Origin: Candidatus Aenigmatarchaeota archaeon
GTDB lineage: Archaea; Aenigmatarchaeota; Aenigmatarchaeia; QMZP01
Length of the DNA: 64,000 nt
Assembly: GCA_043824495.1 (NCBI GenBank)
Contig: JBDRSV010000024.1
Span: 91,056 to 155,055 of the forward strand
Direction: 5' to 3'
The stretch's first letter is position 1. Each line of letters opens with the position of its first letter. Both the position numbers and the translations under genes were made by a program. Shown here one piece after another: positions 1 to 59,263 of this stretch. Under the pieces are notes generated by a model. The model did no database searches and was not told where the DNA came from. It worked only from the letters and a program-made list of their open reading frames with translations.

Positions 1-767
1 TTTTCTATCCCAACCACTTTTCTATGCTGGGCGACATCCAAGTAAAAGGCGCCGTAAATGCTATTCCGAAAACGGCTACAGCAGAAATTTGGGTGGCATA
101 TCTCGATTCGAACGGAATCGAAGAGAGACTACGTCCCATCAGATCCGAGCTGAAAAAGGAATTTGCATCAAGCGATTCCAATCTCGCGATCATATTCAGG
201 TCTAGTTCTCGGACTGAGTTTATGGCAGACGAAGTGGCGCATGATGTGATCAATTTTCTCCTGGAGATGCCAGACGGTGTCATTAGCATGTCACTTGATC
301 TGGAGGATGTTCCATACACATCCTCGAATGTTGGAGTCGTGAAAATCGAAAACGACTCTCTGGTTGTGGAAATATTGTCCCGATCCTTCTCTGATGACGA
401 TCTTTCCTGTATGAAAATGGAGATCGATCGCATCTGCCAGAGTCACAGTGCCACTGTAGAGTTCCCTGTAGAATCTTCAGGTTGGGAACCAAACCCTGAC
501 TCATATCTCCTTCAGGTCGCGCAAAAAACATGGGGTGAATGCGTTGGTGAGAATCTCAAACTTGTGGCAGTTCACGCAGGGTTGGAAGCTGGCGCAATTC
601 AAAACCGATGTGAAATCCTGTTTCCTAACAGGATAATGGACGTCATCTCACTTGGCCCCCAAATCGAGAAATCACACACATCAGATGAGAGAGCGTCCAT
701 CACATCCGTCGTCCAACTCTACAATTTCATGAAAGTTTTCGTGCTCGAATTGGTACATGAAAACTGA
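1..767 (+). CDS. Xaa-His dipeptidase (PepD-like, M20 family) C-terminal fragment, 5' end outside the window
   Basis: Open frame from base 3 to the stop at 767. Motifs HAGLEAGAIQ and LGPQIEKSHTSDERASI resemble the PepD C-terminus. GC-rich. Confidence 0.45.
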   Translation, partial: FYPNHFSMLGDIQVKGAVNAIPKTATAEIWVAYLDSNGIEERLRPIRSELKKEFASSDSNLAIIFRSSSRTEFMADEVAHDVINFLLEMPDGVISMSLDLEDVPYTSSNVGVVKIENDSLVVEILSRSFSDDDLSCMKMEIDRICQSHSATVEFPVESSGWEPNPDSYLLQVAQKTWGECVGENLKLVAVHAGLEAGAIQNRCEILFPNRIMDVISLGPQIEKSHTSDERASITSVVQLYNFMKVFVLELVHEN

Positions 768-876
768 TTGAGGTCTGTAGTGAATCACGTAGAAAAAAAG
801 GAACAGAAGAGAATGTTAATTTTTTCAAATCAAGCAGCGAACAACAAAGTTCGCTCAGAAAACTGAGGTGATTTTC

Positions 877-2388
877 ATGACTCAACAGGAAGCCCTCACA
901 AGGCTTACAAAACTCTGGGGAAAGGCTGCACTTCTCGATTCTTGTGGCCAGCTTCTGGGATGGGACGAACGAGTTTACATGCCCAGAAAGGGTGCAAAAC
1001 ATCGCGCAGATCAGCTTGCCATGGTGGCGGGAATGGTGCATGAACTCCAGGTTGATCCCAGAATCGGTGATCTTCTGGGTGCAATCAGCGGAAGTGATCT
1101 GGTTCGCGACCCGAGTTCAGACGCTGACGTCATCGTCCGCGAAATCGGCCGGGCTCACTACCGGCTGGTGAAAATGCCGCAATCGCTGGTCGAAGAGATC
1201 ACGCGCGTCACTACGCTCGCCCAGGGTGCGTGGGGCGAGGCGCGCGCCAACTCCGACTTCAAGTCGTTCAAGCCATGGCTGGAGAAAGTCATCGCACTGA
1301 AGAAGCAGGAAGCCGAAGCCGTCGGGTACAAAGACGATCCATACGATGCCATGCTCGATGTTTACGAGCCGGGCGCAACGGTCACCTCAATCGACGAGAT
1401 CTTCGCCAAGAACCGTGAAGAACTCGTGATGCTCCTCGATAAGATCAAAGGCTCGGGCAAAGGCCCCGACACCACGATCATCACCCGTGAATATCCAATC
1501 GAAGCACAGAAGACATTCGGTCACGAGGGCGCTGCCGCAATCGGTTTCGACTTCGAGCGCGGTCGTCTCGATATCACGACCCACCCCTTTTGCGCCGGCA
1601 TCGGCCCCGGCGATACGCGCATCACCACTCGTTACGATGTCCATCATTTCCCCGGCGCGTTCTTCGGTATACTGCACGAGGCCGGACACGGTATCTACGA
1701 CCAATGTCTGCCCGATGACAAGTTTGGCAGTCCGCTGGGTGAGTATATCTCGCTCGGTATCCACGAGTCGCAGTCGCGCATGTGGGAAAATATGGTCGGA
1801 CGCTCACGCGCCTTCTGGACACGCATGTATCCCAAAGCGCAGAAGGCATTCCCCAAAGCGTTAGGCGATGTTCCGGTTGACGCGTTCTATTGGGCGATCA
1901 ACGACGTCCGTCCGTCGTTCATCCGTGTCGAAGCCGACGAGGCCACTTACAACCTGCACATTCTGCTGCGTTTCGAAATGGAGCGCGCGTTCTTCTCGGG
2001 TGACTTGAAGGTCGATGACATCCCGGGCGCCTGGAACGAGAAATTCAAATCATACTTCGGCATCACCCCGCCCAATGACGCGCAGGGCTGCATGCAGGAC
2101 GTTCACTGGAGCGCGGGACTGGTTGGCTATTTCCCGACCTACGCACTTGGCAATCTCTACTCTGCGCAGTTCTTCGCCAAAGCCAACGAGGATCTCGGCG
2201 ACCTCCACGCCCAATTCGCCAAGGGCGAGTTCGCACCGCTGAAGAAGTGGCTGCAAGACAACATCCACAGCCACGGCCGCCGCTATCTCGCATGCGAGCT
2301 GGTCGAACGTGTCACCGGCAAGCCGCTCGGCTCCGAAGCGGTGATGGCGTACATGAACAAGAAGTTCGGTGAACTCTACGGCTTCTGA
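877..2388 (+). CDS. M32 family carboxypeptidase (Taq/thermostable carboxypeptidase 1-like)
   Basis: HEAGHGIYDQ (HExxH) and IHESQSRMWEN (the HESQS motif diagnostic of M32). GAGGTG SD 6 nt upstream of ATG 877. The ORF track starts at GTG 868. Confidence 0.8.
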   Translation: MTQQEALTRLTKLWGKAALLDSCGQLLGWDERVYMPRKGAKHRADQLAMVAGMVHELQVDPRIGDLLGAISGSDLVRDPSSDADVIVREIGRAHYRLVKMPQSLVEEITRVTTLAQGAWGEARANSDFKSFKPWLEKVIALKKQEAEAVGYKDDPYDAMLDVYEPGATVTSIDEIFAKNREELVMLLDKIKGSGKGPDTTIITREYPIEAQKTFGHEGAAAIGFDFERGRLDITTHPFCAGIGPGDTRITTRYDVHHFPGAFFGILHEAGHGIYDQCLPDDKFGSPLGEYISLGIHESQSRMWENMVGRSRAFWTRMYPKAQKAFPKALGDVPVDAFYWAINDVRPSFIRVEADEATYNLHILLRFEMERAFFSGDLKVDDIPGAWNEKFKSYFGITPPNDAQGCMQDVHWSAGLVGYFPTYALGNLYSAQFFAKANEDLGDLHAQFAKGEFAPLKKWLQDNIHSHGRRYLACELVERVTGKPLGSEAVMAYMNKKFGELYGF

Positions 2389-2538
2389 GAAGTACAATAC
2401 ACCGAATAAACCAGAGTCACTAAAACCCGATAACCTTTAATCCCAGTGGCTAGTAGTGTCGGTCGCTGGGCTGTGGTTCGAGGGAGTTCGCCACAAGAGG
2501 CTCGATGTTCAAGGAGACTGGACTCGAAAGGTTGACAA

Positions 2539-2947
2539 CATGATGAGACGCATGATTTTCTTGTTGCTGTCGCTTCTGCTGGTGATCAGTTGCTCAGACT
2601 CGGATACTTCAGACGGTTTCTTCCCAAGTCTTGACGAGCAGTATGCTCAGGGTCTGGGAATGTCTTCTGACAAACCATTTCAGGGATTTTATGATCTTAG
2701 TAGTGGATGCAAGATCATACCTGGTGGTCATGTCGAAATTTGCTGCAGAATCCAAGGCGGTCTTAGTCTGGCTGTCAAGGACGCAGTGAATCGCTCCGAT
2801 CGACTAAAAATAGAATTCGGTGGTATCGAGAGCGTCTTATTCGAATCTGGTCAGACAGAAGACACCTTGCGATTGACGGCGATTTCCGAAAAACACCGCG
2901 AGAAAAGGTTGTACATTGTGGTGGTGAACAGTGCTGTGGGGACATAG
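2539..2947 (+). CDS. lipoprotein (hypothetical)
   Basis: MMRRMIFLLLSLLLVISC shows a signal peptide with lipobox LVISC. The ORF track gives 2456..2947; ATG 2539 preferred. Confidence 0.5.
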
Positions 2948-2966
2948 GTTCTCGCCGCGAATCCAA

Positions 2967-3010
2967 ACAGGTATTCAAGAAGAGTCAATTCCTTCTGCCT
3001 GTTTTTAATT
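2967..3010 (+). terminator. intrinsic terminator-like hairpin followed by T-run
   Basis: AAACAGG...CCTGTTTTTAATTT immediately after the lipoprotein stop. Confidence 0.4.
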
Positions 3011-3030
3011 TGTCTAATTAAAGGGATATA
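3008..3030 (-). repeat. junction motif copy 1 (AATTTGTCTAATTAAAGGGATATA; reverse-complement orientation)
   Basis: Matches four other copies at 17660, 20176, 36287 and 56967. Sits exactly at the GC-to-AT composition switch. Confidence 0.85.
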
Positions 3031-3110
3031 GAAAGAAAAAATTAGAAATGTTCAGACATATAAACCTTATAAACTATAATGCTCAATAATTGGTATAATT
3101 CGAAAGGAAA

Positions 3111-3458
3111 ATGACATATATGAAAGCTAAGACAGATATTGGGGTTGGTTTGAAGCCACCTGAGCATAAATGTGAAGAAGAAAACTGTGCATGGCACGGG
3201 AAATTGCCTGTCAGAGGCAGAGTGTTTAGAGGTAGAGTTAGGGCCGCTAAATCTCAGAAAACAGCTATAATCGACTGGGGATTCCATAGATTCGTGCCTA
3301 AATACGAGAGATATGAGAGAAGAAAATCAAGAGTGACTGTTCATAATCCTGGCTGTATGAATGCTAAAGAAGGGGATAATGTTGTAATAGCAGAATGCAG
3401 ACCAATTTCAAAGACAAAGCACTTTGTAATTGTTGGTGTGCAAAAGGAAGGAAAATAA
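3111..3458 (+). CDS. rps17: 30S ribosomal protein S17 (uS17)
   Basis: KTAIIDWGFHRFVPKYERYERRKSRVTVHNP and GDNVVIAECRPISKTKHFVIV are typical archaeal uS17. Confidence 0.8.
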   Translation: MTYMKAKTDIGVGLKPPEHKCEEENCAWHGKLPVRGRVFRGRVRAAKSQKTAIIDWGFHRFVPKYERYERRKSRVTVHNPGCMNAKEGDNVVIAECRPISKTKHFVIVGVQKEGK

Positions 3459-3459
3459 T

Positions 3460-3858
3460 ATGAAAGCGATATCAGCCAATATGACAAGGTGTTTGCCTGT
3501 GGGAGCAAGAATTAATTGTGTAGATAATTCAGGAGCAAAAATAATTAGAATAATTTCTGTAAGAGGATTTAAAGGTATACGAAGAACAATTCCTTCAACT
3601 GGTATTGCTGGTTTATTCCAGTGTAAAGTACTCAAAGGAAATGAGAAAGTTCGACATCTGGTTCATAAAGCTGTTATTGTAAGACAAACAAAAGAATTCA
3701 GAAGAGCAGACGGAACAAGAGTGTCATTCGAAGATAATGCAGCTGTATTAGTGGATGACAAAGGGGATCCAAAGGGTAATAGCATCAAGGGTCCTATTGC
3801 AAGGGAAGTTGTTGAGAGATTCCCAACAATTGGTAAGATTGCAAGCACAGTAGTTTAA
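3460..3858 (+). CDS. rpl14: 50S ribosomal protein L14 (uL14)
   Basis: CVDNSGAK, AVIVRQTKEFRR and FEDNAAVLV motifs. The ATG at 3460 follows the S17 stop. Confidence 0.85.
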   Translation: MKAISANMTRCLPVGARINCVDNSGAKIIRIISVRGFKGIRRTIPSTGIAGLFQCKVLKGNEKVRHLVHKAVIVRQTKEFRRADGTRVSFEDNAAVLVDDKGDPKGNSIKGPIAREVVERFPTIGKIASTVV

Positions 3859-4211
3859 TGGTGACTGACATGACAGATAACATAGATTTCAGTGAATTCC
3901 AAAAAGTTAATATAAGAATAGGAACAATTGAAGCAGCTGAGCCTGTTGAGAACACAGAAAAGCTGTTGAGGCTTCAAATAAGTTTAGGCGAAGAGAAGAG
4001 ACAAATTGTTTCTAGTATAGCAAAGGATTTCACACCTGATCAACTCATTGGTAAGCAAATACCAATACTTACCAACCTGGAGCCAAAAAGTTTCAGAGGA
4101 ATTGAAAGTCAGGGTATGATCTTACTGGTCGTAGAGGAACAAGATGGTTCAGAAAAGCTCACATTAATAACGCCTGAAAATAAAGTTCCTACAGGATCTA
4201 CAGTCAGGTAA
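3858..4211 (+). CDS. tRNA-binding domain protein (Trbp111/EMAP/MetRS C-terminal-like OB fold)
   Basis: VNIRIGTI...EKLLRLQISLGEE...GKQIPILTNLEPKSFRGIESQGMIL pattern. ATG overlaps the L14 stop (TAATG). Confidence 0.55.
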   Translation: MVTDMTDNIDFSEFQKVNIRIGTIEAAEPVENTEKLLRLQISLGEEKRQIVSSIAKDFTPDQLIGKQIPILTNLEPKSFRGIESQGMILLVVEEQDGSEKLTLITPENKVPTGSTVR

Positions 4212-4216
4212 GAGTA

Positions 4217-4561
4217 ATGTCAAAAAAGAGAACAGTTGCAATATTGGTGGGGATATTAATGTTGTTATTGGTATTCCTGGTCGTACTACCGCTATCATTC
4301 GACTCTTCATTGGGAGCTGACTCATTACCTGATTCAGCTTTTTATGAAATTGAATTAGCAGGTGAGAACATAGCATGTGGTATATCACTTGATAGAAAAG
4401 CATGTTTGCTTGAACTTGCTAATGAAAGAGACCAAGAAGTGGAAGAGTTAAATATAAAACAAAGAAGATTATTCGATGAAGATGAAAAGCAACAGTATGA
4501 ATTGCTCATAATTAAAACTGAAAACGCAGCTTCGAGATTAAGAATCGAGGCACTAAAATAG
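4217..4561 (+). CDS. hypothetical membrane-anchored protein
   Basis: N-terminal TM helix VAILVGILMLLLVFLVVLPL and an acidic coiled-coil C-terminus. No recognisable family. Confidence 0.4.
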   Translation: MSKKRTVAILVGILMLLLVFLVVLPLSFDSSLGADSLPDSAFYEIELAGENIACGISLDRKACLLELANERDQEVEELNIKQRRLFDEDEKQQYELLIIKTENAASRLRIEALK

Positions 4562-4569
4562 GAGATCAA

Positions 4570-5094
4570 ATGAAACAGACATGGTCTAAAGACTGGTTGA
4601 GTTCAAAACAACCAAGAAAGCAAAGGAAATATAGAGCTAATGCACCGCTCCATATTAGACGTAAGTTTATTTCTGCACACTTGAGTGAAGATTTGAGAAG
4701 ACAATTCAGTAGAAGAGCATTCCCTCTAAGAAAAGGTGATCAAGTAGAAATTATGAGAGGTAGCTTCAGAGGTAAGAAAGGTCAGGTAACTCGAGTAAAC
4801 TTGTCAAAAAGTAAAGTTTACGTTGAAGGTGTAAACGTGAAAAAAGTGGATGGATCTGAAGTTGCAAGAGGAATCCAACCTTCCAACATTAGAATAATCA
4901 GTCTGAACCTTGACGATAAAAAGAGAAGAATCGCTGTAGACAGAACAAGAGACCAGAAAAAATCTGTAAAAGAAACAGTCAAAGAAGTGAAAACAGAAAA
5001 AGAAACAAAACCGGTAGCTAAACCAGATAAATCAAAAGTTCCAGCGAAAGAAGCTAAAACCACTCCTAAAAAATTAACAAAGGAAGGGAAATGA
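4570..5094 (+). CDS. rpl24: 50S ribosomal protein L24 (uL24) with Lys-rich C-terminal tail
   Basis: SKQPRKQRK...RKGDQVEIMRGSFRGKKGQVTRV is the KOW domain. Confidence 0.8.
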   Translation: MKQTWSKDWLSSKQPRKQRKYRANAPLHIRRKFISAHLSEDLRRQFSRRAFPLRKGDQVEIMRGSFRGKKGQVTRVNLSKSKVYVEGVNVKKVDGSEVARGIQPSNIRIISLNLDDKKRRIAVDRTRDQKKSVKETVKEVKTEKETKPVAKPDKSKVPAKEAKTTPKKLTKEGK

Positions 5095-5135
5095 GTTACT
5101 TTATGCTTAAATAGTTAATAATTAAGAGGTTTGAT

Positions 5136-5846
5136 ATGTCACATTTAAAGAGATACGCGATGCCAAGGAACTGGCCAGTTGAGGTCAAGAAGAAAATTTT
5201 TATAGTTAGACCTATGCCTGGGCCTCATGCTATAAATAGATGCATACCTCTAAAAATTCTGATTAAAGATTCTCTAGACTATGCAGATACATCAAGAGAA
5301 GCAAAGAAAATTATCACATCAGGAAAAGTTAAAGTTGATGGTGTGATAAGAAGAGATGTTAAGTTTCCTGTGGGATTGATGGATGTTATAGAATTGCCTG
5401 ATGCAAAGGAAGCTTATAGAGTTGTTCTCAATAGAAGAGGAATAATATTGAAGAAGATAAAATCTGATTCTGATAAGAAATTATGTTTAATCAAAAACAA
5501 AGTGAGTGTTAAAAAAGGACATTTTCAACTAAATCTTCATGACGGTAGAAATATACTCCTAAAAACAGGAGCTGACGCTTACAAAACAGGCGATTCCATT
5601 GTTATCCAACTTTCTGATAATAAAATACTCAAGCACTACAAACTAGAAAAAGGAGTACCAGCTTTCATATACGCAGGAAAGAATATGGGTGTCTCAGGAA
5701 CAATAAAGGAAATCAAAAAGAAGAAAACAATGGTAGAGAAATCTGTTATTATATTTAAGACTGATGAAAAAGAAATGGAAACCCTTAAGGGTTACGTTTT
5801 CCCAGGTTACTTGGATTTGGGTGAATCTGGAAAGGAGAGTAAATGA
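5136..5846 (+). CDS. rps4e: 30S ribosomal protein S4e (eS4)
   Basis: MSHLKRYAMPRNWPV, KVKVDGVIRRDVKFPVGLMDVIE. Confidence 0.8.
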   Translation: MSHLKRYAMPRNWPVEVKKKIFIVRPMPGPHAINRCIPLKILIKDSLDYADTSREAKKIITSGKVKVDGVIRRDVKFPVGLMDVIELPDAKEAYRVVLNRRGIILKKIKSDSDKKLCLIKNKVSVKKGHFQLNLHDGRNILLKTGADAYKTGDSIVIQLSDNKILKHYKLEKGVPAFIYAGKNMGVSGTIKEIKKKKTMVEKSVIIFKTDEKEMETLKGYVFPGYLDLGESGKESK

Positions 5847-6352
5847 CAGAAAACCCAATGAGACAGATAAGAATAGAGAAGGTCACTGTAAACATGGGAG
5901 CAGGTGAAGCCGGAGCTAAGTTAGATAATTCTGTTAAGCTTATTGAAAAATTAACAGGAGCTAAAATTGTTATTACAAAAACACATAAAAGAACCACATT
6001 CGGTGGACCAAAGAAAAAACCTATTGGAGCCAAAACAACTCTAAGAGGTAAAAAAGCTGAAGAATTCTTAGAGCTAATGTTAAAAGCTGTTGAAAATAAA
6101 TTAAGAAAAAAACAATTTGATGTTAATGGAAATTTCTCTTTTGGTATAAAAGAATACATTGATATACCAGGTGTCAAATACGATCCAGATATTGGAATTA
6201 TGGGAATGGATATCTGTGTAACATTACAAAGACCTGGATATAGAGTTAAGAATAGAAAAATAAATCAAAGAAAGATTGGGATGAAACACAACATTAAAAA
6301 AGAGGACTCCATGGAATTCATGAAAACTAGATTTAAGGTAGAGGTAGTTTAG
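5843..6352 (+). CDS. rpl5: 50S ribosomal protein L5 (uL5)
   Basis: NPMRQIRIEKVTVNMGAGEAG...FSFGIKEYIDIPGVKYDPDIGIMGMDI. Confidence 0.8.
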   Translation: MTENPMRQIRIEKVTVNMGAGEAGAKLDNSVKLIEKLTGAKIVITKTHKRTTFGGPKKKPIGAKTTLRGKKAEEFLELMLKAVENKLRKKQFDVNGNFSFGIKEYIDIPGVKYDPDIGIMGMDICVTLQRPGYRVKNRKINQRKIGMKHNIKKEDSMEFMKTRFKVEVV

Positions 6353-6574
6353 ATGTCATTTTTAAAAGTTAGAAAACAGATAGAGAAAAAACCTATCAAG
6401 GTTGCAAGATATGATAAATTTAACAAACCAAAAAAGAGAAAATTCGGAAAAAATATTCATAGATGCGCAAAATGTAACAGAACAGGCGGGATGATAAATA
6501 AGTACGATTTACATTATTGTAGACAGTGCTTCAGAGAACAAGCAGAAAAATTAGGATTTGTAAAATATAGTTAG
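6353..6574 (+). CDS. rps14: 30S ribosomal protein S14 type Z (uS14, zinc-binding)
   Basis: CAKCNRTGGMINKYDLHYCRQCFRE with four Cys. Confidence 0.75.
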   Translation: MSFLKVRKQIEKKPIKVARYDKFNKPKKRKFGKNIHRCAKCNRTGGMINKYDLHYCRQCFREQAEKLGFVKYS

Positions 6575-6582
6575 GAGTTAAT

Positions 6583-6969
6583 ATGAGACACGATTTAATT
6601 TCAGATGCATTATGCATAATAAAAAACGCAGAATTCATTGGTAAAAAGGAGTGTAAGGTTCCTGTGTCTAAGTTAATTAAAGGTATGTTGACAATCATAA
6701 AAACCAATGAATACATTAAGGATTTCAAGTTAACACATGAAGAGAAAGGAGATTATTTTCATGTTCATCTTGCAGGTAAAATAAATGATTGTAATTCTAT
6801 TAGACCACAATACTCATTCCAAGTAAAAGACGTTGTTAAATGGGAAAAAAGATTCCTTCCAGCAAGAGAGATAGGAATTTTAATTATTACCACATCAAAG
6901 GGCATAATGGATCAAAGACAAGCAGAAAAAGAAAAATCCGGTGGTAGATTACTGGGTTATGTTTACTAG
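6583..6969 (+). CDS. rps8: 30S ribosomal protein S8 (uS8)
   Basis: DLISDALCIIKNAE...IITTSKGIMDQRQAEKEKSGGRLLGYVY. Confidence 0.8.
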   Translation: MRHDLISDALCIIKNAEFIGKKECKVPVSKLIKGMLTIIKTNEYIKDFKLTHEEKGDYFHVHLAGKINDCNSIRPQYSFQVKDVVKWEKRFLPAREIGILIITTSKGIMDQRQAEKEKSGGRLLGYVY

Positions 6970-6977
6970 GTGATTAT

Positions 6978-7241
6978 ATGATAACAAGCAGAGACATTAA
7001 ACATGCAGAAGAGCAAAAAAAATTGTTGATTGGAACAAAAAGTATAGTGAAATCACTAAAAATCGGGGAACTGGAAAGAGTCATTTATGCTTCTAATTGC
7101 CCAGAATCCACATTGAAGGATATAAATTATTATTTAAAATTAACTAAAACTGAAGTGGAATTATTCGATGGAAATTCTTCAAAACTAGGTGAAACCTGCG
7201 GTAAACCCTTTAATATACTTATGATCGCAATAAAGAAGTAG
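6978..7241 (+). CDS. rpl30e: 50S ribosomal protein L30e (eL30)
   Basis: LLIGTKSIVKSLKIGELERVIYASNCPE...KLGETCGKPFNILMIAI. Confidence 0.7.
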   Translation: MITSRDIKHAEEQKKLLIGTKSIVKSLKIGELERVIYASNCPESTLKDINYYLKLTKTEVELFDGNSSKLGETCGKPFNILMIAIKK

Positions 7242-7247
7242 ATAAAT

Positions 7248-7652
7248 ATGCCAATAAAACTAGAAACAATGACAATTAGAACTATTGCAACATTTGAAAA
7301 CGTAACGAACGTTCATGCGGTGGATTGCATAATTGCAGACGATTACATGTGTTTTCTTGTTGATCCTGAAAAAGTTGGCTTAGCAATTGGCAAAAACGGA
7401 TCAACAATAAAACAATTAAGAAAAATGTTTAATAAACAAATAAAAGTGTTCGGTTACTACAGAGATCCAGAATCTCTTGTAAAGGGGGTAATACCCGAAG
7501 TAATTGAAATAGAACAAAATAGTGGAGCTTTGGTAGCTACTCTCCCAAGCGGAGAAAAATTATCTATAATAGAGAAAAACAACAAGAATATTAAGATACT
7601 AAAGGAAATATTAAAGAGACATTTTTCCATCAAGACATTAAAACTCAGATAA
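7248..7652 (+). CDS. nusA: archaeal NusA-like KH-domain transcription termination factor
   Basis: KH GxxG motif VGLAIGKNGSTIKQLRKMF. Size and L30e-NusA-S12-S7 context are typical of archaea. Confidence 0.6.
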   Translation: MPIKLETMTIRTIATFENVTNVHAVDCIIADDYMCFLVDPEKVGLAIGKNGSTIKQLRKMFNKQIKVFGYYRDPESLVKGVIPEVIEIEQNSGALVATLPSGEKLSIIEKNNKNIKILKEILKRHFSIKTLKLR

Positions 7653-7657
7653 GATAT

Positions 7658-8287
7658 ATGATTCAAATGAAAATTAAGATAATAAAAAAATCTGGAAATG
7701 ACCTTGAATTCACAGCTGAAAACATCAGTATACCTTTAGCAAATGCACTTAGAAGGATAATGATTTCTGAAGTGCCAACATTATCAGTTGACTGGATTGA
7801 TATTCATAATAATACATCTGTTTTGTTTGATGAGATGATATCTCACAGAATTGGTTTAATTCCAATAAAATTCAACCCTGATAAATTTAACTTTATAGAT
7901 GATTGTAAATGTGAAGGCAAAGGATGTACATTGTGTCAAGCAGTGTTCTCAGTGACCAAGAAAGGTCCATGTATTGTTTATTCGGGGGACATGAAACCTG
8001 CAAACAAAGAAGCAATTTTCACAGATCCTAAATTCCCTATAGTTGAACTTCTAGAAAATCAAGAAATCAAACTAGATGCTATTGCAAGACTTGGAATAGG
8101 ACAAAATCACTCAAAGAATCAAGCAGCTATAGCAGCATATGAATATGATGGTGACGGAAAAGCATTGAAATTTAAATTTAAGATAGAGTCTGTATCAGGT
8201 TTGAAACCTGATTACATTGTTGAAAAAGCAGCACATATATTAGAATTAAAAGCAGCGGAATTTAAGAAGGAAGTCAATAAGATATGA
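7658..8287 (+). CDS. rpoD: DNA-directed RNA polymerase subunit D (Rpo3)
   Basis: ANALRRIMISEVPT signature and a CKCEGKGCTLC four-Cys cluster. Confidence 0.8.
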   Translation: MIQMKIKIIKKSGNDLEFTAENISIPLANALRRIMISEVPTLSVDWIDIHNNTSVLFDEMISHRIGLIPIKFNPDKFNFIDDCKCEGKGCTLCQAVFSVTKKGPCIVYSGDMKPANKEAIFTDPKFPIVELLENQEIKLDAIARLGIGQNHSKNQAAIAAYEYDGDGKALKFKFKIESVSGLKPDYIVEKAAHILELKAAEFKKEVNKI

Positions 8288-8496
8288 GCGCTCAATTGGT
8301 TGTATCCTGGATCCTTGGTAGCATATTCATGCTAGGAGGGGTATGGATAATAACAAACCTCGAGATGAATCTTGGGGTGACCGAGTCCTCTTATATTGTC
8401 GCTCTTATTATAGCATTTATCATGTTCCTTCTAGCTGGTTTCCTATGGATTTCGGTTGCCGTGGGTACAGAAAAACAGCCGCATCACCACCATTAA
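8284..8496 (+). CDS. small hypothetical membrane protein
   Basis: Two TM helices. ATGA overlap with the rpoD stop. Ends QPHHHH. Confidence 0.4.
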   Translation: MSAQLVVSWILGSIFMLGGVWIITNLEMNLGVTESSYIVALIIAFIMFLLAGFLWISVAVGTEKQPHHHH

Positions 8497-8606
8497 TTCC
8501 GAAATGAGCTATTCCTGCATTTATAAATATTTATATCAATAAGAACCAATATACTCACAAAATCTATATAAATCCTTGAGCTGAATAAGCTCATACAAGT
8601 GATATC

Positions 8607-9029
8607 ATGGGACAATTTGGAGCACGAGAATTAAAGAAAAAGAGGAAAAAGTTTAGATGGAAATCTACAAAACACAAGAGACATCAGCTAAAATTATGGA
8701 AGAAATCACCTCTTAGAGGAGCTCCTATCGGAAAAGGTATAGTTCTTAAGAAGAAGGGTATTGAACAAAAACAGCCACATTCTGGTATTATTAAAGCTGT
8801 CAGAGTACAGATAGTTAAAAACGGTATTAATGTTACAGCATTTGTACCAAAAACAGGTGCAATCAAGCATATAGACGAGCATGACGAAGTAACAATAGAA
8901 GGAATGGGCGGATCTCAGGGTGGAGCTGTCGGTTCTATGCACGGTATCAAGTTTAAGGTTTTCAAGGTGAATAATATTTCTTTGAAAGAAATTCTAAAGG
9001 GGAAAAAACAGAAGTCTAAGGGCGGTTAA
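8607..9029 (+). CDS. rps12: 30S ribosomal protein S12 (uS12)
   Basis: [36 protein letters not shown]...VTAFVP...[11 protein letters not shown]. Confidence 0.85.
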
Positions 9030-9031
9030 TT

Positions 9032-9622
9032 ATGTCAATATTACTTTTTAATAGATGGGATACGAGCAAAGTTGAAGTCCAAGATCCTAGTCTTAAGAGA
9101 TATGTTAATTTGGAACCTGTTATAGTACCTAGAACTAACGGTAAAATGAGAGGTCAGCACAAATATAAAGTTAATATAGTTGAAAGATTCACAAACAGAC
9201 TCATGGTTAATGGCCATAGAGGAAAAAAACATAAAATCACATCAGGTCATCATGTTGGAAATACAGCAACACTTTTCAATCACATGAAAGCTGCTTTCAC
9301 AGAAATAGAAAACAAGACAAAGAAAGATCCTGTGCAAGTTCTTGTACACGCAATAGAGAATTCTTCAGTAGTTGAAGAGGTTGCTTCTTACAGAATGGGT
9401 GGCATAATGGCTAGAAAAGCTGTTGTAGTGTCTCCTCAGAGAAGGCTAGACCTAGCATTAAGATACCTCACGCAAGGAATCTACAAGAAGAGCTTCAAAA
9501 ACAGGCAACCTCTCTCAAGAGTCATCGCAGATGAGCTCATAGCTGCTGCTAACAACGACACAAAAGTCTTCGCAATCCAAGAGAAAAACAGAATAGAAAG
9601 AGAAGCCGAAGGCGCTAGATAA
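9032..9622 (+). CDS. rps7: 30S ribosomal protein S7 (uS7)
   Basis: RFTNRLMVNGHRGKKHK...AIENSSVVEEVASYRMGGIMARKAV. Confidence 0.8.
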   Translation: MSILLFNRWDTSKVEVQDPSLKRYVNLEPVIVPRTNGKMRGQHKYKVNIVERFTNRLMVNGHRGKKHKITSGHHVGNTATLFNHMKAAFTEIENKTKKDPVQVLVHAIENSSVVEEVASYRMGGIMARKAVVVSPQRRLDLALRYLTQGIYKKSFKNRQPLSRVIADELIAAANNDTKVFAIQEKNRIEREAEGAR

Positions 9623-9708
9623 TTTTAATGTGCTATTTTTAGTGTCAGTAATTTCGTATAACAGGTAGCTCACACTACTTTTTTCTAAAAATAAAAGAAA
9701 TTGGGTAT

Positions 9709-10134
9709 TTACCCAATGTAATTAGCTTGTCCTGCACCTTGAGGTTTCAAGACTGGGATACCTATTGGTGGTGGTAGCTGTAAATCGTCAGCCATGTAAG
9801 CTATCTTTAGAAGACATCTCCTGAATAAGTGATTCAAGATTTCTATGTTTATTTCTTCTGGTAATTTTTTGTCTTTTTTCCAAGCTTTCATTACTATTGC
9901 TAGTGTTTTTGGAAGATAGATAACTTCTCCGCCTACCTTGATGTCGGCCAAATCAGGTGCATATTTTGTCTCAAACTCGAATGTTACGGACATTCCTTTT
10001 TTGTTAAGTGTTCCGATGTTTACTTCTTTTACACCTATGATTTTTGGTGTTGAGTTTACTTTAATTTCACCCTTAATTGGCTTTGGTTTTTTATTTGCCT
10101 CAAATGAGGTAAATGCGAGTCCTATGATTGGCAT
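9709..10134 (-). CDS. hypothetical protein
   Basis: 141 aa ORF in AT-rich backbone, no recognisable motif. Confidence 0.35.
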   Translation of the reverse strand: MPIIGLAFTSFEANKKPKPIKGEIKVNSTPKIIGVKEVNIGTLNKKGMSVTFEFETKYAPDLADIKVGGEVIYLPKTLAIVMKAWKKDKKLPEEINIEILNHLFRRCLLKIAYMADDLQLPPPIGIPVLKPQGAGQANYIG

Positions 10135-10242
10135 ACTAATCTCCTTAATATTATGTATACTATTACATATTGTTATTTAAATGCATATTATGCTCTCATT
10201 TACGAATATTTCTTCATATATTTATATTTCCGTACACAAATC

Positions 10243-10782
10243 TATACTATGAATATTCTCATACCAATGGCAGAGGGCTTTGAGGAAATAGAAGCTATTA
10301 CAGTTATAGATGTTTTCAGGAGAGCTGGAATCAATACTATCAGCGTCGGTCTTCCTGGTACAATGGTCACAGGAGCTCACGGCATCAAAGTTTTTGCTGA
10401 TAAGAGACTTGATGAAGTGAATATAGACGATTTTGATGCTCTTGTTCTTGTTGGTGGAGATCCTGGATACCACAATCTAGGTAAATCACAGAAGATAATA
10501 GAAGCCATCAAGAGGTTTGAAGCAGCAAAGAAACCTGTAGGAGCTATATGTACTGCGCCAGCTATTCTAGGTAAGCTAGGTCTACTAGACGAAAGAAGAG
10601 CAACAATATATCCCGGAATGGAGAGAGAGATACCAAGACCAAGAGGAAACAGAGTCATAGACGATGATAATATAATAACATCACAAGGACCTGGAACAGC
10701 TATGGAATTTGCTATCCAGATTGTGGATAAACTCAAGGGTCCTTCAATAGCGGGTAAGGTAAGAAGGGAACTGGTGGCTTAA
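10243..10782 (+). CDS. DJ-1/PfpI (ThiJ) family protein
   Basis: NILIPMAEGFEEIEAITVIDVFRRAG...ALVLVGG...AICTAPAILG. ATG 10243 preferred over the track start 10153. Confidence 0.75.
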   Translation, partial: YTMNILIPMAEGFEEIEAITVIDVFRRAGINTISVGLPGTMVTGAHGIKVFADKRLDEVNIDDFDALVLVGGDPGYHNLGKSQKIIEAIKRFEAAKKPVGAICTAPAILGKLGLLDERRATIYPGMEREIPRPRGNRVIDDDNIITSQGPGTAMEFAIQIVDKLKGPSIAGKVRRELVA

Positions 10783-11007
10783 ATGAGCGGATTAACTGCA
10801 GCCGAGAAAGAAATTCTAGAAATAATGTCAAAGAGACTTTTAGTAACAACAAGAGAGTTGAACAAATTCTTGAGCTCTGATAAATACAATGGAGGAACTG
10901 ATTTTAGTTTACAGAGACTTGTAGATCAAGGATACTTAGAAAGAGTAGAATCCTTAGGGACAACTGTTGTTGTAACTCAGAAAGGCTTGAGAGCTCTAAA
11001 AGCTTGA
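10783..11007 (+). CDS. small winged-helix DNA-binding protein
   Basis: 74 aa; TTRELNKFL...LQRLVDQGYLERV is an HTH-like pattern. Confidence 0.4.
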   Translation: MSGLTAAEKEILEIMSKRLLVTTRELNKFLSSDKYNGGTDFSLQRLVDQGYLERVESLGTTVVVTQKGLRALKA

Positions 11008-11070
11008 GTAAAGATCTTTTTATAGTAAAATGACATATATAGAAGTACTTCGATCGAATGATCTTAGAAT

Positions 11071-11234
11071 AGCCCCGTAGTGTAGTGGTCAAAGTTTGAC
11101 AACCTGTGTGCTCGCATGTAGTTGTCTACACGACTAGGCATATCGGGCCTTGGTTTTCGCAACTAAGGATCTGAGCGAGAAATCGCTGTGAAAGAGGATA
11201 CCCGGTGACTGCGGTTCGAATCCGCACGGGGCTA
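11071..11234 (+). tRNA. intron-containing tRNA, probably tRNA-Gln(UUG), with two putative introns (D-loop region and anticodon loop)
   Basis: 7-bp acceptor AGCCCCG/CGGGGCT with A1-U72 and discriminator A. D-loop AGUGG. T-arm TGCGG-TTCGAAT-CCGCA. Anticodon stem TCGGG/CCCGG with loop CCTTGG...A. Total 164 nt implies about 90 nt of intron. Confidence 0.55.
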
Positions 11235-11266
11235 TCATTTTTATTGTATACTTACAATTATTTCTT

Positions 11267-12952
11267 ATGTATCCACTAGAAAAGTTCAGAGACGATATTA
11301 AATCAGTGATAGCTGAATACAAAAAGATAAAGAAAGATGAAGTTGTTTTAGCAAAACCTCCTCAAGGTATTCCAGCAGATTTAGCCTATCCATGTTTTGG
11401 CTTGGCTAAAAGAGAAAAAAGAGATCCAGTAGAATTTGCTCTCACAACAGTGGAGAAAATAAAACCTAGAGGATTGATATCCAGAATAGAAGCTAATGGT
11501 CCATACATAAACTTCTATGCAGACTGGAGTAAGATGGGAAGCTTAGTTTTGAATGGAATAATAAAAGAAAAAAACGCTTATGGTAAAGGAAAGAAAAAGA
11601 ATAAGATTCTAGTGGAACACACTTCAGCCAATCCAGATGGTCCTTTACATCTAGGTCATTTCAGAAACACTGTTATAGGAGACTCTTTAGCAAGAATATT
11701 ACGATTCTATGGTCATGAAGTAAAAACAGATTTCTATGTAAATGATACAGGAAGACAAATAACTCTAGCTTCTTGGATGTATTTACAAAATGAGCCTAAA
11801 CCTAAAGGTAAGCTAGATTGGTGGGTTTATGACTTGTATTTCAAATGTAACCAGAAATTGAAAACCAATCCAAGTATAGAAAATGAAATAACAGATATGA
11901 TGCTTAAGTTTGAAAATGGAGATAAAGAACTAAGAAAAACACATGAGTTCATAGTTGATCAATGCTTGAAGGGGCATAAAGAAACTCTAGAAAGCATTGG
12001 AATTAAAATCGATAGATTCTCAAAGGAAAGCGAATTCCTATTCACTGGAAAAGTTGATGATGTTTTGAAGAAGATACTCAAAACAAAGGAAGGAAAATCG
12101 TCTGGTAAAAGAGTATGGGTTGACTTGAAACAATTCAAAATAGAAAGAGAATTCACTCTAACAAGATCTGATGGAACAACAATTTATCCAGCAAGAGATT
12201 TGGCATATCATGCAGACAAGTTTGAAAGAGCAGATCAAAACATAAATATTATAGGAACAGATCAGAAATTTTACTTCAAGCAGTTAACATCAACTCTTGG
12301 TTTACTATTTCCAAAGAAAACAGAGAATTATCATGTTTTGTTTTATGAGTTTTTGCTGTTGCCAGAAGGAACAATGTCTACACGTTTAGGTAAATTTATT
12401 TCAGTTGATGAACTTGTAAAGAAATTTACAGAAACTGCAAGAAAAAGTATAGAAATAAAAAATCCAAAATACTCAACTAAATTCAAGGATGATATAGCTA
12501 AGATGGTTGGTATAGGTGCATTGAAGTATGCAATGATAAAAGTTTCGCCTGAGAAAACATATTCTTTCAGTGTGGATGACAGCCTAAATTTCGAAGGTAA
12601 CACGGCACCTTATATTCAATATACTCATGCAAGAGCTTCTTCGATACTTCAGAAAGCTGGTAGTAGCAAACATGTAATCAAGTATATAGGAGAAGAAGAG
12701 AAACAAGTCATGAACAAGTTAATGGAATTCCCATATGCAGTGAAAAGAGCTTCTAAAGAATATAGACCACACATAATAGCTAACTATGCATATGATCTAG
12801 CAACGTCTTTCAATAACTTCTATCACTCGGTTCCTGTACTGAAAGCAGAAAAAGACTTAATAGGAACAAGACTAGCTATAGTAAAAGCTGCTCAGATAGT
12901 TTTGAAAACAAGTCTAGATCTTCTAGGTATAGAAGCACCTGATAAGATGTAG
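11267..12952 (+). CDS. argS: arginine--tRNA ligase
   Basis: HTSANPDGPLHLGHFRNTVIGD (HIGH region), GTMSTRLGKFISVDEL, DALK-type anticodon-binding C-terminus. Confidence 0.9.
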   Translation: MYPLEKFRDDIKSVIAEYKKIKKDEVVLAKPPQGIPADLAYPCFGLAKREKRDPVEFALTTVEKIKPRGLISRIEANGPYINFYADWSKMGSLVLNGIIKEKNAYGKGKKKNKILVEHTSANPDGPLHLGHFRNTVIGDSLARILRFYGHEVKTDFYVNDTGRQITLASWMYLQNEPKPKGKLDWWVYDLYFKCNQKLKTNPSIENEITDMMLKFENGDKELRKTHEFIVDQCLKGHKETLESIGIKIDRFSKESEFLFTGKVDDVLKKILKTKEGKSSGKRVWVDLKQFKIEREFTLTRSDGTTIYPARDLAYHADKFERADQNINIIGTDQKFYFKQLTSTLGLLFPKKTENYHVLFYEFLLLPEGTMSTRLGKFISVDELVKKFTETARKSIEIKNPKYSTKFKDDIAKMVGIGALKYAMIKVSPEKTYSFSVDDSLNFEGNTAPYIQYTHARASSILQKAGSSKHVIKYIGEEEKQVMNKLMEFPYAVKRASKEYRPHIIANYAYDLATSFNNFYHSVPVLKAEKDLIGTRLAIVKAAQIVLKTSLDLLGIEAPDKM

Positions 12953-13083
12953 AGTGATTAAACGGTAAGCATAATCAAGCTAATAGCACTTATTATAATT
13001 ATTTATTTAGTAGTTTCTATTTTCCAATGTTACTGGCCTGCGAGTATGCTTGAAGAAGTCTTATGTATTTATGGTCCACTATT

Positions 13084-14410: not shown

Positions 14411-14475
14411 ACATGAAAGTTAATTTTTGCCTACTTAAATATGACCTGGGGGAAGGGTTCCCCAGGTATATAATT

Positions 14476-15171: not shown

Positions 15172-15315
15172 ACCCCCTTGACATCACCAAGGAATGAACA
15201 GGATATAAAGACCATACCGAACAAAAGTGAACAATCATGTTATATCCCTCTAATTAGACAATATAAAACAATCAGGTGCCGAGTGCACACCTAATTGTCC
15301 TTGCCAATCCTCTTC

Positions 15316-16422: not shown

Positions 16423-16489
16423 GGCGAAAATCTCCTTCTCGTTGTATTTCTTTGTTTATAGTTATCGTCCTAGAATTAATTCAAAACAA

Positions 16490-17639: not shown

Positions 17640-17659
17640 TTATTTTTTTTATCAGTTAT

Positions 17660-20197: not shown

Positions 20198-20199
20198 AA

Positions 20200-32665: not shown

Positions 32666-32681
32666 TTGAGTTGTAGTAGAA

Positions 32682-57536: not shown

Positions 57537-58082
57537 TTAGTCCTTCTCAGCCTTCTGAAGTTTCAGACAAATGGTCTCACCGTCAGTTGCGTGGTCGTAG
57601 TCAAATGTAGTCGCAAATTTGGCGCTCCCGATCTTGATTCGAGCGTGAATCTGACACTTCTTGGGAATACTCGGGAGAGTTATCTCCCCACGAATGATCG
57701 TAGAGCCGCCTTCAGTGTCCTCATCATCTATCTTGAAGTAGACGATGGTCCCATTCGGAGTTGCGATACAGTCATCGCCGTGGCATACTTCGGCTTTGAC
57801 GGTGACTGAAGCACGAACAAAGTCGAGATCGAAATCGGTGTTCCCATCAGCCGTGTCATAATCCAGACGTGCTTCGTACAACTCGCCGTCGATTGTTACG
57901 AATGCTTCAAGCGATCCAGCCGCGAGGACGCCCATTAAGACGATGATACCGTTTTCTTTCACGGTGGCACGATTTTCTTCGCTTGCGTCGCCTGCGTCAT
58001 TACCAAATAATACTGAGATGCCTTTTGGTATTAGCTCAGTATCTTCGTAATAGGCGGTCAGTTGAAGTGTCGTTTTATCCAT
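57537..58082 (-). CDS. hypothetical protein (island E)
   Basis: 181 aa, Asp/Gly-rich. Confidence 0.45.
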   Translation of the reverse strand: MDKTTLQLTAYYEDTELIPKGISVLFGNDAGDASEENRATVKENGIIVLMGVLAAGSLEAFVTIDGELYEARLDYDTADGNTDFDLDFVRASVTVKAEVCHGDDCIATPNGTIVYFKIDDEDTEGGSTIIRGEITLPSIPKKCQIHARIKIGSAKFATTFDYDHATDGETICLKLQKAEKD

Positions 58083-58127
58083 TTATCCTTTGCCCTCCTT
58101 GTATGGTTTGCCTGTTCCATATAGGCG

Positions 58128-59030
58128 TTATAAACTGACTGTCACAAGAATGTGGTGTGACTTGTCCCCATATTCACTTTGGCGCATTGGCAAGAGCATT
58201 ACTCTACCAATCTTGCCTCCTATATAGTACCAGGAGGATTTAACACCGAACTCGTATCCGCCTCCGAGAAGAAGGAGGTATTTCCCATGCTGCCAGGCAA
58301 ACGCCTTGTCAGCACCGATTCCAACATTTCCGGATTTCGTATCACCGAAGGTCTCAAAGCCCAGGCCGTGGAAGAGGCCAACAGAACTAGAGAAGACCCA
58401 TTTACCCTTTCTGAAGTTCTGGTAGGCATCGAATCGTGTAGCTTGAATTCTTGCAGATCTCAGAAAACCGAGAACTGATGATTCTTTGTGATTAAGTTTC
58501 CATTCAAACCTGGTTCCAAAGTCCAAGTCCCACATGTTCTGGGATGGTTCGGTGATCCATATGGGACCGCCAGGAATGTACTCGGTTCCGGGAGCAATGA
58601 AATTGACAGTTCTCGTTCTCACCCAGATTCTTCGAGCCCCGATAGCAAGTCGAAATTTTCCAGGAAGAACTCCGAGAGCAAACCGAATATTCGTCGTTGT
58701 GGCGATTTTTTGGAAGTCGGTCTGTGCAGGTGGTACGCCTTCTGATTGAGTGTAACCACCGAGACCCATTAGAGTAAAGCTAGTCTCGGTACCCAGTGGG
58801 CGGAGAAGGAACGGGAGCTTGTACGAGGCTCCAGATTCTATTACCCAGAAATCTGTCCGCGAACCATACATCCCGTCTGTTGGGGTCTTGAGAATGTAGG
58901 TGAAGACTGACGAGTTGTCGTAAATTGGTGGTGGTTTGGCATCCACTTTCACCGGAGACACTACCACCACAAACAGTGTCACTGCTGCGATGATGTTACG
59001 CATCGAGACCCTCGCGATAACTTTATGCAT
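58128..59030 (-). CDS. secreted beta-rich protein (outer-membrane beta-barrel-like, hypothetical)
   Basis: Signal peptide MRNIIAAVTLFVVVVSPVKVDA. Alternating hydrophobic pattern and aromatic-rich C-terminus. Confidence 0.45.
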   Translation of the reverse strand: MHKVIARVSMRNIIAAVTLFVVVVSPVKVDAKPPPIYDNSSVFTYILKTPTDGMYGSRTDFWVIESGASYKLPFLLRPLGTETSFTLMGLGGYTQSEGVPPAQTDFQKIATTTNIRFALGVLPGKFRLAIGARRIWVRTRTVNFIAPGTEYIPGGPIWITEPSQNMWDLDFGTRFEWKLNHKESSVLGFLRSARIQATRFDAYQNFRKGKWVFSSSVGLFHGLGFETFGDTKSGNVGIGADKAFAWQHGKYLLLLGGGYEFGVKSSWYYIGGKIGRVMLLPMRQSEYGDKSHHILVTVSL

Positions 59031-59263
59031 CGAAACCCCCTTGGCTGAACGCCGTGACCGAGTCTATAGAAATCTCTCTACTTCTATCTCAACACGAAAG
59101 ACGATTTACTTGACTTTCGTGATTAAGTGGTTACCTAAATACAAATACCAGCACTGAGATGAGATTAATCTTCTCAGATAAATGCTGGGTTAAAGGTGTG
59201 TTTAGTTGAAAAACATGAATATAGAGGATTCTTGATAATAAACTTTTAAAAAGTAGGTGAACC

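Follow-up and report, generated by a model that had tools for sequence, protein, structure and literature searches.

GC-rich islands in an archaeal chromosome

The 64,000-nucleotide stretch analysed here (positions 91,056 to 155,055 of contig JBDRSV010000024.1, Candidatus Aenigmatarchaeota archaeon, assembly GCA_043824495.1), referred to below as the window, carries six GC-rich islands in an AT-rich backbone, and each island is bordered at one edge by a conserved AT-rich box of approximately 27 nucleotides, termed M. Together the islands amount to 21,250 bp, or 33% of the window, with GC contents of 0.466–0.533. A first-pass annotation, made from the sequence without database searches, had described high-GC segments with sharp boundaries; such segments do stand out sharply from a backbone of GC 0.342, and the compositional boundaries are sharp at both edges of the islands. 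That annotation counted five islands, one fewer than were found, and gave a GC difference of 25–30 points, whereas whole islands differ from the backbone by 12–19 points and a gap of 25–45 points is seen only at third codon positions (GC3; 0.50–0.70 in the islands and 0.19–0.35 in the backbone). The islands, their open reading frames (ORFs) and one gene lying between them are as follows.

<1–2940, plus strand: island 1, GC 0.519, starting 960 bp upstream of the window; 3′ part of pepD (1–767), M32 carboxypeptidase (877–2388) and a 163-amino acid lipoprotein ORF (2456–2947), directed toward M copy 1.
2965–3004, plus strand: terminator-type hairpin of island 1 (AAACAGG...CCTGTTT), then a T-tract.
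15268–17010, minus strand: island 2, GC 0.466, with a hairpin at 15268–15298; two ORFan membrane proteins (15316–16422 and 16490–17041), both directed toward M copy 2.
17235–17639, plus strand: AT-rich gene for a 134-amino acid zinc-ribbon/helix–turn–helix protein, an N-terminal fragment of an IS6-family transposase.
17687–19675, minus strand: island 3, GC 0.533, with a hairpin at 17687–17723 (dG −23.6).
20202–23775, no strand assigned: island 4, 3.6 kb, GC-rich, essentially non-coding and hairpin-rich.
27350–36281, plus strand: island 5, GC 0.493, with a terminal hairpin at 36251–36279; nine co-directional genes, comprising a lipoprotein gene (27378–27740), ORFans (28241–28942, 28984–29316, 29415–30233, 30334–31659, 32093–32557, 32758–34749 and 34831–35835) and an FHA-domain ORF (35974–36222).
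56994–59065, minus strand: island 6, GC 0.501, with a hairpin at 56992–57032 (dG −21.3); ORFans at 57064–57528, 57537–58082 and 58128–59030, directed toward M copy 6.

Gene orientation is uniform inside each island: none of the 19 genes switches strand, and all run toward M. The backbone is unambiguously archaeal. It encodes S17, L14, L24 (uL24, of the archaeal/eukaryotic L26 type), S4e (eS4), L5, S14, S8, an L30e/L7Ae-family protein, KH-NusA, Rpo3, S12 and S7, together with ArgRS, S28e, L24e, L7Ae and diphthine synthase (TP_methylase family), in agreement with the archaeal markers read from the sequence at first. The intein and the intron-containing tRNA of that reading were also located, the former inside inositol-3-phosphate synthase and the latter as tRNA-His(GTG) with a 74-nt intron.

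Island 1 interrupts an archaeal ribosomal-protein operon between Rpp29 (with a methyltransferase gene on the opposite strand) and S17 (rps17), so that the gene order reads L2-S19-L22-S3-L29-SUI1-Rpp29, methyltransferase, pepD, M32, lipoprotein gene, S17-L14-L24-S4e. The M32 carboxypeptidase is full length (Pfam E = 3e-178) and keeps the HPF, HEAGH, IRVEADE and GYFPTY motifs; its start codon is preceded by GAGGTGAT, a GGTGAT ribosome-binding site of backbone flavour. The pepD product is a bona fide dipeptidase (TIGR01893, 377 bits, cutoff 344). The product of island 3 is a 624-amino acid secreted protein (17755–19629) with a type-A sorting domain of the type IX secretion system (T9SS), which was recognized both by TIGR04183 (51.5 bits against a cutoff of 23) and by Pfam, as had been proposed from the sequence; the LVSC and VISC lipoboxes named with it are visible in the translations. 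For the protein that had been read as beta-barrel-like, an AlphaFold2 model reached a predicted local distance difference test score of 31, too low for use.

Bacterial expression signals had also been ascribed to the islands, for which support is weak. Of these, a terminator-type hairpin with a T-tract does close every island. Shine–Dalgarno-like motifs, on the other hand, precede island and backbone genes alike, and neither sigma70-like promoters (15 against 11 ± 3.5 in shuffles) nor intrinsic terminators (8 against 7.6 ± 3.1) are enriched in island 5, whose internal hairpins are without T-tracts. Two hairpin repeats lie between the genes of this island. A 51-nt module, present at 29328–29378 and 30239–30289 (84% identical), consists of a GGGGATCC...GGGATCCCC hairpin followed by TCAACyTGACAATwAAC, and precedes two distantly paralogous ORFan secreted proteins (29415–30233 and 30334–31659; 24% identical over the C-terminal 130 amino acids). 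An intergenic repeat at 31948–32005 and 32580–32665 has a CCCGGG...CCCGGG hairpin, then TTCCAAATGAGyTCAT and an inverted copy.

Island 4 was examined separately. In the standard code it holds no ORF longer than 142 codons, and reassignment of a single stop codon gives no gene-sized ORF (longest run, 316 codons). Its sole credible ORF (21169–21534, minus strand, 121 amino acids) has an AAGGAG Shine–Dalgarno sequence and faces M, and a set of small proteins was rejected, this being the only credible one. Coding under another genetic code was rejected, stop density being random in all frames; so were an rRNA or other known RNA (Rfam was empty both at the gathering threshold and at E ≤ 1) and decayed genes (a six-frame Pfam search with stops masked gave no remnants). 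Local folding is strongest here, with a mean z of −1.2 compared with −0.6 to −0.9 in the coding islands and −0.3 in the backbone. Island 4 may be a large non-coding RNA of a new type or non-coding bacterial DNA.

An oriented motif at the edge of each island

The organizing feature of the window, overlooked in the first-pass annotation, is M together with islands of one transcription unit each. M was found by repeat search and has the consensus YTWTATCCCTYTAAWTRGACAWW. Six copies with at most three mismatches are present in the window against 0.01 expected, one per island, and a weaker copy lies within the array of islands 2 to 4.

3003–3033, minus strand: M copy 1, CTATATCCCTTTAATTAGACAAATT, 43 bits, its GACAA side toward island 1.
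15240–15267, plus strand: M copy 2, TTATATCCCTCTAATTAGACAATAT, 41 bits.
17220–17247, plus strand: weak M-like copy, TTTTATACCTCTTAATTGACAATAT, 14.8 or 20.9 bits in two scans, directly before the IS6-type transposase fragment.
17659–17686, plus strand: M copy 3, TTATATCCCTTTAAATGGACAATGC, 46 bits.
20174–20201, plus strand: M copy 4, TTTTATCCCTTTAAATAGACATATA, 41 bits.
36282–36309, minus strand: M copy 5, TTATATCCCTTTAATTAGACAATAC, 46 bits.
56966–56993, plus strand: M copy 6, CTATATCCCTTTAAATAGACAATAT, 48 bits.

Beyond the weak copy, a weight-matrix scan of the window gave no further M, and approximately 45 backbone intergenic regions are without one. All six copies lie within 60 nt of an island edge, at the compositional boundary (P ~ 1e-10). 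Polarity is constant: the island is on the GACAATA side, and M lies 3′ of the genes in all 11 cases counted when other loci are included (P ~ 5e-4), and a hairpin stands 4–14 nt from M in 12 of 12 copies. Read in the sense of the genes, each island ends in a stop codon, a GC-rich hairpin, 3–6 T and then TTGTCTAWTTAAAGGGATAT.

At the distal edges, the GC change-points precede the first start codon by about 40 nt at most, and in island 1 fall within the first codons. No second M was found there by the weight-matrix scan and no shared motif by k-mer counts, which were at or below the null. Because the genes are unidirectional, the terminal hairpin closes the island, the distal edge lies near a start codon, and the internal hairpins of island 5 are without T-tracts, each island has the appearance of one complete transcription unit.

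From 15.2 to 23.8 kb, four M copies in direct orientation, the weak one included, mark off in turn island 2, the IS6-type fragment, and islands 3 and 4. The IS6 match itself (NF033587, E = 5e-5) covers only profile positions 2–52 of 202 and sits between the weak copy and M copy 3. Elsewhere, two backbone segments are each enclosed by the reverse complement of M, rc(M), on the left and by M on the right: one of 12.2 kb, between copies at 3.0 and 15.2 kb, and one of 20.7 kb, between copies at 36.3 and 57.0 kb.

In forward orientation, M contains a perfect archaeal box-A TATA element, TTTAAATA (TTTAWATA, 8 of 8), that points into the cassette. For this reason M is probably an inward antisense promoter, and would drive transcription antisense to the foreign genes. 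In its downstream part it resembles two native promoters, TTTAAATAACAATATG before the minus-strand gene at 9709–10134 and CTTAAATAGTTAATAAT before rps4e.

M was rejected as a duplicated att site, since there is neither a second copy nor a shared k-mer at any distal edge. Nor do the islands look like integrase-mediated genomic islands: flanking direct repeats are missing, the sole tRNA (11070–11236) is not adjacent to an island, and no integrase was found in the window.

Linkage of the islands to the backbone

The source library (SRR26275509) is a bulk Illumina NovaSeq metagenome, prepared without multiple displacement amplification (MDA) and assembled with MEGAHIT. The sample is groundwater from 345 m depth at the Äspö Hard Rock Laboratory (borehole SA2600A), and a metatranscriptome from the same borehole exists (PMC11484514). 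Approximately 70 kb of the 171,815-bp contig was covered by the analysis, in which island proteins bear the locus tags ABIJ92_043xx-045xx.

As a second assembly, Logan contigs of the same run were used, namely two contigs of 22,374 and 48,054 bp. Compared with the window, they were 100% identical over all aligned parts (−5262 to 12388, 17094–29629 and 51750–64000). Placed by length at −5262 to 17112 and 17094 to 65147, they contain all 12 island edges. Five of these edges were checked by sequence (islands 1 and 6 at both edges, island 3 at the M-proximal edge), and the remainder (island 2, the distal edge of island 3, and islands 4 and 5) by contig coordinates and gene order only. No exact repeat of at least 31 nt that could bridge two genomes is present in the window, where the longest shared run is 21 nt, and M was rejected as an assembler bridge on the same length.

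The islands are a genuine part of the archaeal chromosome and not chimeric joins. A chimeric contig, one of the two explanations first offered for the GC contrast, is rejected on the agreement of the Logan contigs, the non-MDA library, the lack of a bridging repeat and the oriented motif at the edges. The Logan contigs end at 17094–17112, just ahead of the IS6 transposase fragment and the weak M copy that precedes it. Population heterogeneity in the cassette array could underlie a branch in the assembly graph at this point.

Zixibacterial affinity of the islands

Named relatives of the island 1 M32 carboxypeptidase belong mostly to candidate division Zixibacteria, at 60–72% identity, and the best unnamed match reaches 84% (own record excluded). 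The other named matches are two Planctomycetota-type proteins from metagenome-assembled genomes (MAGs; 59–60%) and one labelled “bacterium” (66%). For the T9SS protein of island 3, every named homologue is Zixibacterial, with 50–62% identity over the C-terminal 56%, and its single full-length relative comes from an ordinary bacterial chromosome whose signature is Zixibacteria-like. By these searches, the closest homologues of islands 1 and 3 are Zixibacterial.

Composition-normalized tetranucleotide signatures of the coding islands are Zixibacteria-like and unlike the host backbone. All coding islands correlate with Zixibacterial loci at r = 0.57–0.85 and with the backbone at r = 0.0–0.28 (0.35–0.48 for island 2), whereas backbone segments correlate among themselves at r = 0.50–0.83; island 4 is intermediate (0.47). 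A comparison of island and backbone composition had been proposed as a check on the islands, and GC3 and tetranucleotides do set the two apart.

The proposed homology check gave a divided answer: islands 1 and 3 are Zixibacterial by their proteins, and the island 5 ORFans that were searched have no homologues. The two largest have none among 5.8e9 proteins, and the 663-amino acid protein has a single marginal match among 1.84e9 representatives. Most proteins of islands 2, 5 and 6 fall in no Pfam, PHROG or PADLOC family, the exceptions being the FHA-domain ORF of island 5 and one marginal PADLOC match. A viral nature of the ORFan islands was rejected, as there were no PHROG matches and M is absent from IMG/VR; defence systems were also rejected, the only match being a marginal one to KwaA over a transmembrane stretch.

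Judged by homology and composition, the islands are bacterial, Zixibacteria-type DNA in an Aenigmatarchaeota (DPANN) chromosome. Multi-site acquisition between domains, the other explanation first offered, is thereby supported, with donors of Zixibacteria type indicated by the M32 and T9SS homologues and by the tetranucleotides. The evidence does not establish a very recent date: the M32 gene is 82.7% identical to its closest relative at the DNA level, in the coding region only, its GGTGAT site is of backbone type, and gene neighbourhoods are unlike those of Zixibacterial genomes, the Zixibacterial M32 neighbourhood (M36, B3_4, M32, CMD, TPR) not being shared by island 1.

Recurrence of M outside the window

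A 39-bit M pattern was searched against 185,579 GTDB species representatives, where it matched two “uncultured archaeon” MAGs (54–58% GC) and one further genome, L005. Nine metagenome contigs were also matched, and six of these (L007, L009, L013 and the near-identical L011, L012 and L014) have the layout of M, a short A-run, a hairpin and genes converging on M. The matches in L005 and in metagenome contigs L008, L010 and L015 were set aside as chance: those of L005 and L010 lie inside long ORFs, that of L015 is in AT-rich non-coding DNA, and that of L008 shares bases with the start of a predicted, unannotated ORF. M was found neither in viral contigs (IMG/VR) nor in Zixibacterial loci, and the searchable literature holds no mention of it.

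In L007, the signature switches at M. The 5′ side correlates with the window backbone at r 0.64 and with Zixibacteria at 0.31; the 3′ side correlates with Zixibacteria at 0.69 and with the window islands at 0.71, with a GC difference of 3 points only. In this contig, M is surrounded by genes for PASTA, SLT and anti-sigma domains, which converge on it. In L009, and in L006, which is the 58%-GC archaeal MAG, a second, weaker M is present on the other strand after a gap of 10–11 nt, making a tail-to-tail pair. The resulting symmetric module reads hairpin, T-tract, rc(M), gap, M, A-tract, hairpin, and the bracketing of backbone by rc(M) and M in the window is a larger-scale repeat of this paired geometry.

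The pair in L006 (rc(M)-11 nt-M) lies in a 1.7-kb ORF-free insert (3625–5347) that splits the genes for pyruvate dehydrogenase E1-beta and E2, in parallel to island 1 in the ribosomal-protein operon.

A proposed route of insertion and its alternatives

We consider it somewhat more probable than all else together that the islands are Zixibacterial transcription units captured at M in the manner of cassettes, through one end and in a specific orientation. Each island would be a cassette of one whole bacterial transcription unit, and the foreign DNA would have been joined, 3–6 T past its terminator hairpin, to the GACAATA/A-run edge of M. M would be the cis-acting site of this one-ended, orientation-specific insertion and would thus have taken part in it rather than arriving later. 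The enzyme responsible would nick M or join a strand at its outer edge, and the other end of the insert would be joined without sequence specificity. New cassettes would accumulate beside resident M copies, either in direct arrays, as at 15.2–23.8 kb, or tail-to-tail, as in L006 and L009. The M-tagged islands point to an undescribed, orientation-specific route of cross-domain gene uptake.

Several observations weigh against capture at M. Searches of the window turned up no recombinase, HUH nuclease or reverse transcriptase, and no integrase, DDE-domain transposase, HUH nuclease or reverse transcriptase lies beside M. The MEGAHIT and Logan assemblies are both built from the same reads, and the join at 17094–17112, where the Logan contigs overlap by about 19 nt, is carried by the MEGAHIT contig only. 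A search for an empty site by exact look-ups of uL14 and uS12 returned the same sample only, to which the strain is confined. For islands 2, 5 and 6, the argument for bacterial origin is compositional. L006 has no clear compositional switch at M, so M is not always a marker of foreign DNA. The upstream part of M, TATATCCC, is conserved and unlike the A-rich region, resembling a transcription factor B recognition element (BRE), of native promoters. Finally, the paired arms are just as compatible with M being a palindrome for protein binding or regulation that reached its place later than the islands.

Bacterial-type genes are a feature shared with the diffuse bacterial-to-DPANN horizontal gene transfer already on record (e.g. 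Castelle et al. 2021, PMC8204110). What differs here is that one third of 64 kb is foreign DNA, un-ameliorated and pointing to one bacterial phylum, and that it comes as motif-tagged transcription units, one of them inside a ribosomal-protein operon. Bacterial genes in DPANN are known and their route of entry is not; here the foreign DNA is dense, a third of the region, points to one phylum, and has an oriented 27-nt tag on each transcription unit. M offers a searchable sequence handle on cross-domain gene capture outside the integron system, and the finding suggests that Aenigmatarchaeota and Zixibacteria are specific physical partners.

In rolling-circle capture by IS91/ISCR insertion sequences (IS) and Helitrons, the conserved end has a near-terminal hairpin, the other end is variable, the captured DNA varies in length and no target-site duplication is made. 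The islands are alike in having one conserved hairpin end, a variable other end and no target-site duplication; they differ in their archaeal host, bacterial cargo and unrelated terminal sequence, and the window yielded no HUH/Rep transposase.

The main rival to capture at M is ordinary, unrelated horizontal gene transfer after which M settled as a small palindromic regulatory or mobile module (divergent-promoter-like, or like a miniature inverted-repeat transposable element; rc(M)-N10-M) beside terminator-type hairpins with T-tracts. We regard this as unlikely, though not negligible; on this reading, such hairpins would be confined to bacterial-derived DNA in this AT-rich archaeon. Speaking for it are the pairs in L006 and L009, complete, back to back and set between two terminator hairpins with a fixed gap of 10–11 nt, the presence of M in the GC-rich archaeal genome L006 without a compositional switch, and the likeness of M to native promoters. 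All six window copies, however, are solo arms with no partner of 11 bits or more. Each island has a single copy, in every case beside the outermost terminator and precisely where composition changes, and it is unlikely that the partner arm would have decayed six times out of six while the other stayed at 34–48 bits.

A second rival takes each island as a complementary DNA (cDNA) of a bacterial polycistronic RNA, primed on the terminator U-tract by the A-run of a nicked M, in the manner of target-primed reverse transcription; the island would then extend from the 3′ end of the transcript, at M, to its 5′ end. In retro-copies made by long interspersed nuclear elements (LINEs), the insert ends at the transcript end, an A/T-rich primer site is used, orientation is fixed and the 5′ end is variable and without a motif. 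The islands resemble these in their transcript-like end, A/T-rich join, fixed orientation and motif-less distal edge. The foreign DNA ends 3–6 T past the terminator hairpin, like the 3′ end of a mature mRNA; the antisense strand runs on from M-forward in 11 of 11 cases; and the islands are unidirectional, 19 genes without a strand switch. Distal change-points within about 40 nt of the first start codon with no shared motif, internal hairpins without T-tracts in island 5, and island 4 as a possible long non-coding RNA fit as well.

Set against this, the host is a prokaryote, searches of the window returned no reverse transcriptase, the island edges gave no target-site duplication, and a 9-kb cDNA, of operon length, would be needed for island 5. 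Sigma70-like hexamers with correct spacing stand immediately before the distal change-points of island 5 (CTGACA-16-GACAAT) and island 6 (TTGAGA-18-TATAGA), which suggests that promoters were carried along, as in DNA-level transfer, and the paired arms suggest a DNA-binding site. It is improbable that the islands are DNA copies of operon transcripts, that RNA of a Zixibacterial host is taken up by an Aenigmatarchaeote living on it, and that M drives antisense RNA against the host's own genes. If true, this would give the first “processed operons” in a prokaryote and the first genomic evidence of a DPANN archaeon with a bacterial host.

Translocatable units of the IS6/IS26 kind are considerably less probable again. 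M would then be the left terminal repeat and promoter of an archaeal IS6-family element, cargo would have entered by IS26-style targeted cointegration, and the transposases would have been lost later. IS26 units form direct arrays of a repeated end with cargo between and without target-site duplication. The direct M array with cargo between at 15.2–23.8 kb is of this form, target-site duplications were not found, and the weak M copy stands immediately before the N-terminal fragment of an IS6-type transposase. Here, however, there are 27-nt boxes only and no whole IS copies, and neither a full-length IS6 element nor a DDE domain adjoins any M. Behind the strong M copies come hairpins, with no adjacent transposase, and the fixed cargo orientation, with the terminator end constantly presented to M, is left unaccounted for. 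To our knowledge, M is by inspection unlike known IS6 terminal repeats, which also counts against this reading.

Archaeal integrons and clusters of attC sites lacking integron integrases (CALINs), including attC sites in Aenigmatarchaeota, have been reported and proposed as a platform for bacteria-to-archaea transfer (Ghaly et al. 2022, PMC9668308). Integron cassettes, like the islands, are foreign, often ORFan, closed at the 3′ end by a site with a variable hairpin, and found both in direct arrays and singly. Hairpin plus M is nevertheless very improbable as an archaeal attC, since the RYYYAAC/GTTRRRY core boxes occur in none of the six sites (four chance pairs in the whole window), the conserved part is a 27-nt AT-rich box beside the hairpin rather than 7-nt hairpin ends, the cassettes are multi-gene units of up to 9 kb placed tail-to-tail as well as head-to-tail, and no IntI was found in the window.

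Wrong joining of bacterial and archaeal reads in assembly or binning, to which the single short-read library behind both assemblies and the join at 17094–17112 without Logan cover lend some room, is equally remote, given that all 12 edges lie inside Logan contigs by length and position with full identity wherever compared, that no repeat of at least 31 nt could bridge two genomes, that an oriented motif marks the edges (P ~ 1e-10), that unrelated samples have the same architecture, and that island genes fit locally (the GGTGAT site before M32, and the operon resuming after island 1).

Other features of the backbone

Three further backbone features were annotated.

3111–9622, plus strand: ribosomal-protein/RNA polymerase cluster (S17, L14, L24, S4e, L5, S14, S8, L30e, NusA-KH, Rpo3, S12, S7).
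11070–11236, plus strand: tRNA-His(GTG) with its intron at position 41, found by intron-aware ARAGORN (aragorn -i); adjoins no island.
23950–25992, minus strand: between islands 4 and 5, a HerA/FtsK-type ATPase weakly similar to the CedD DNA translocase.

The tRNA was missed by default ARAGORN and by Rfam both at the gathering threshold and at E ≤ 1. In the ribosomal-protein cluster, a tRNA-binding-domain gene and a DUF5667-like gene lie between rpl14 and rpl24 (3858–4561), and the usual L6-L32e-L19e-L18-S5 genes are missing after S8; scrambled clusters of this kind are typical of reduced DPANN genomes. The HerA/FtsK-type ATPase is also weakly like defence-associated HerA, with every match far under the curated cutoffs, and the backbone stretch that holds it is 3.5 kb long.

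Two genes are found on the backbone side of M copies. A secreted 231-amino acid ORFan at 14476–15171, beside M copy 2, has a GC content of 0.41 and a GC3 of 0.32, and could be an older, partly ameliorated acquisition. A PD-(D/E)XK or Cas4-like nuclease gene (36936–37589) of intermediate GC content (0.44) lies approximately 630 nt from M copy 5. Between islands 5 and 6, the backbone also carries a type IIG restriction-modification enzyme (Eco57I/MmeI-like, 39330–42056), an IS5-family DDE transposase (44028–45038) with a GC3 of 0.44, above that of the backbone, and the inositol-3-phosphate synthase gene (47035–49560), split by an intein carrying a homing-endonuclease-sized insert.

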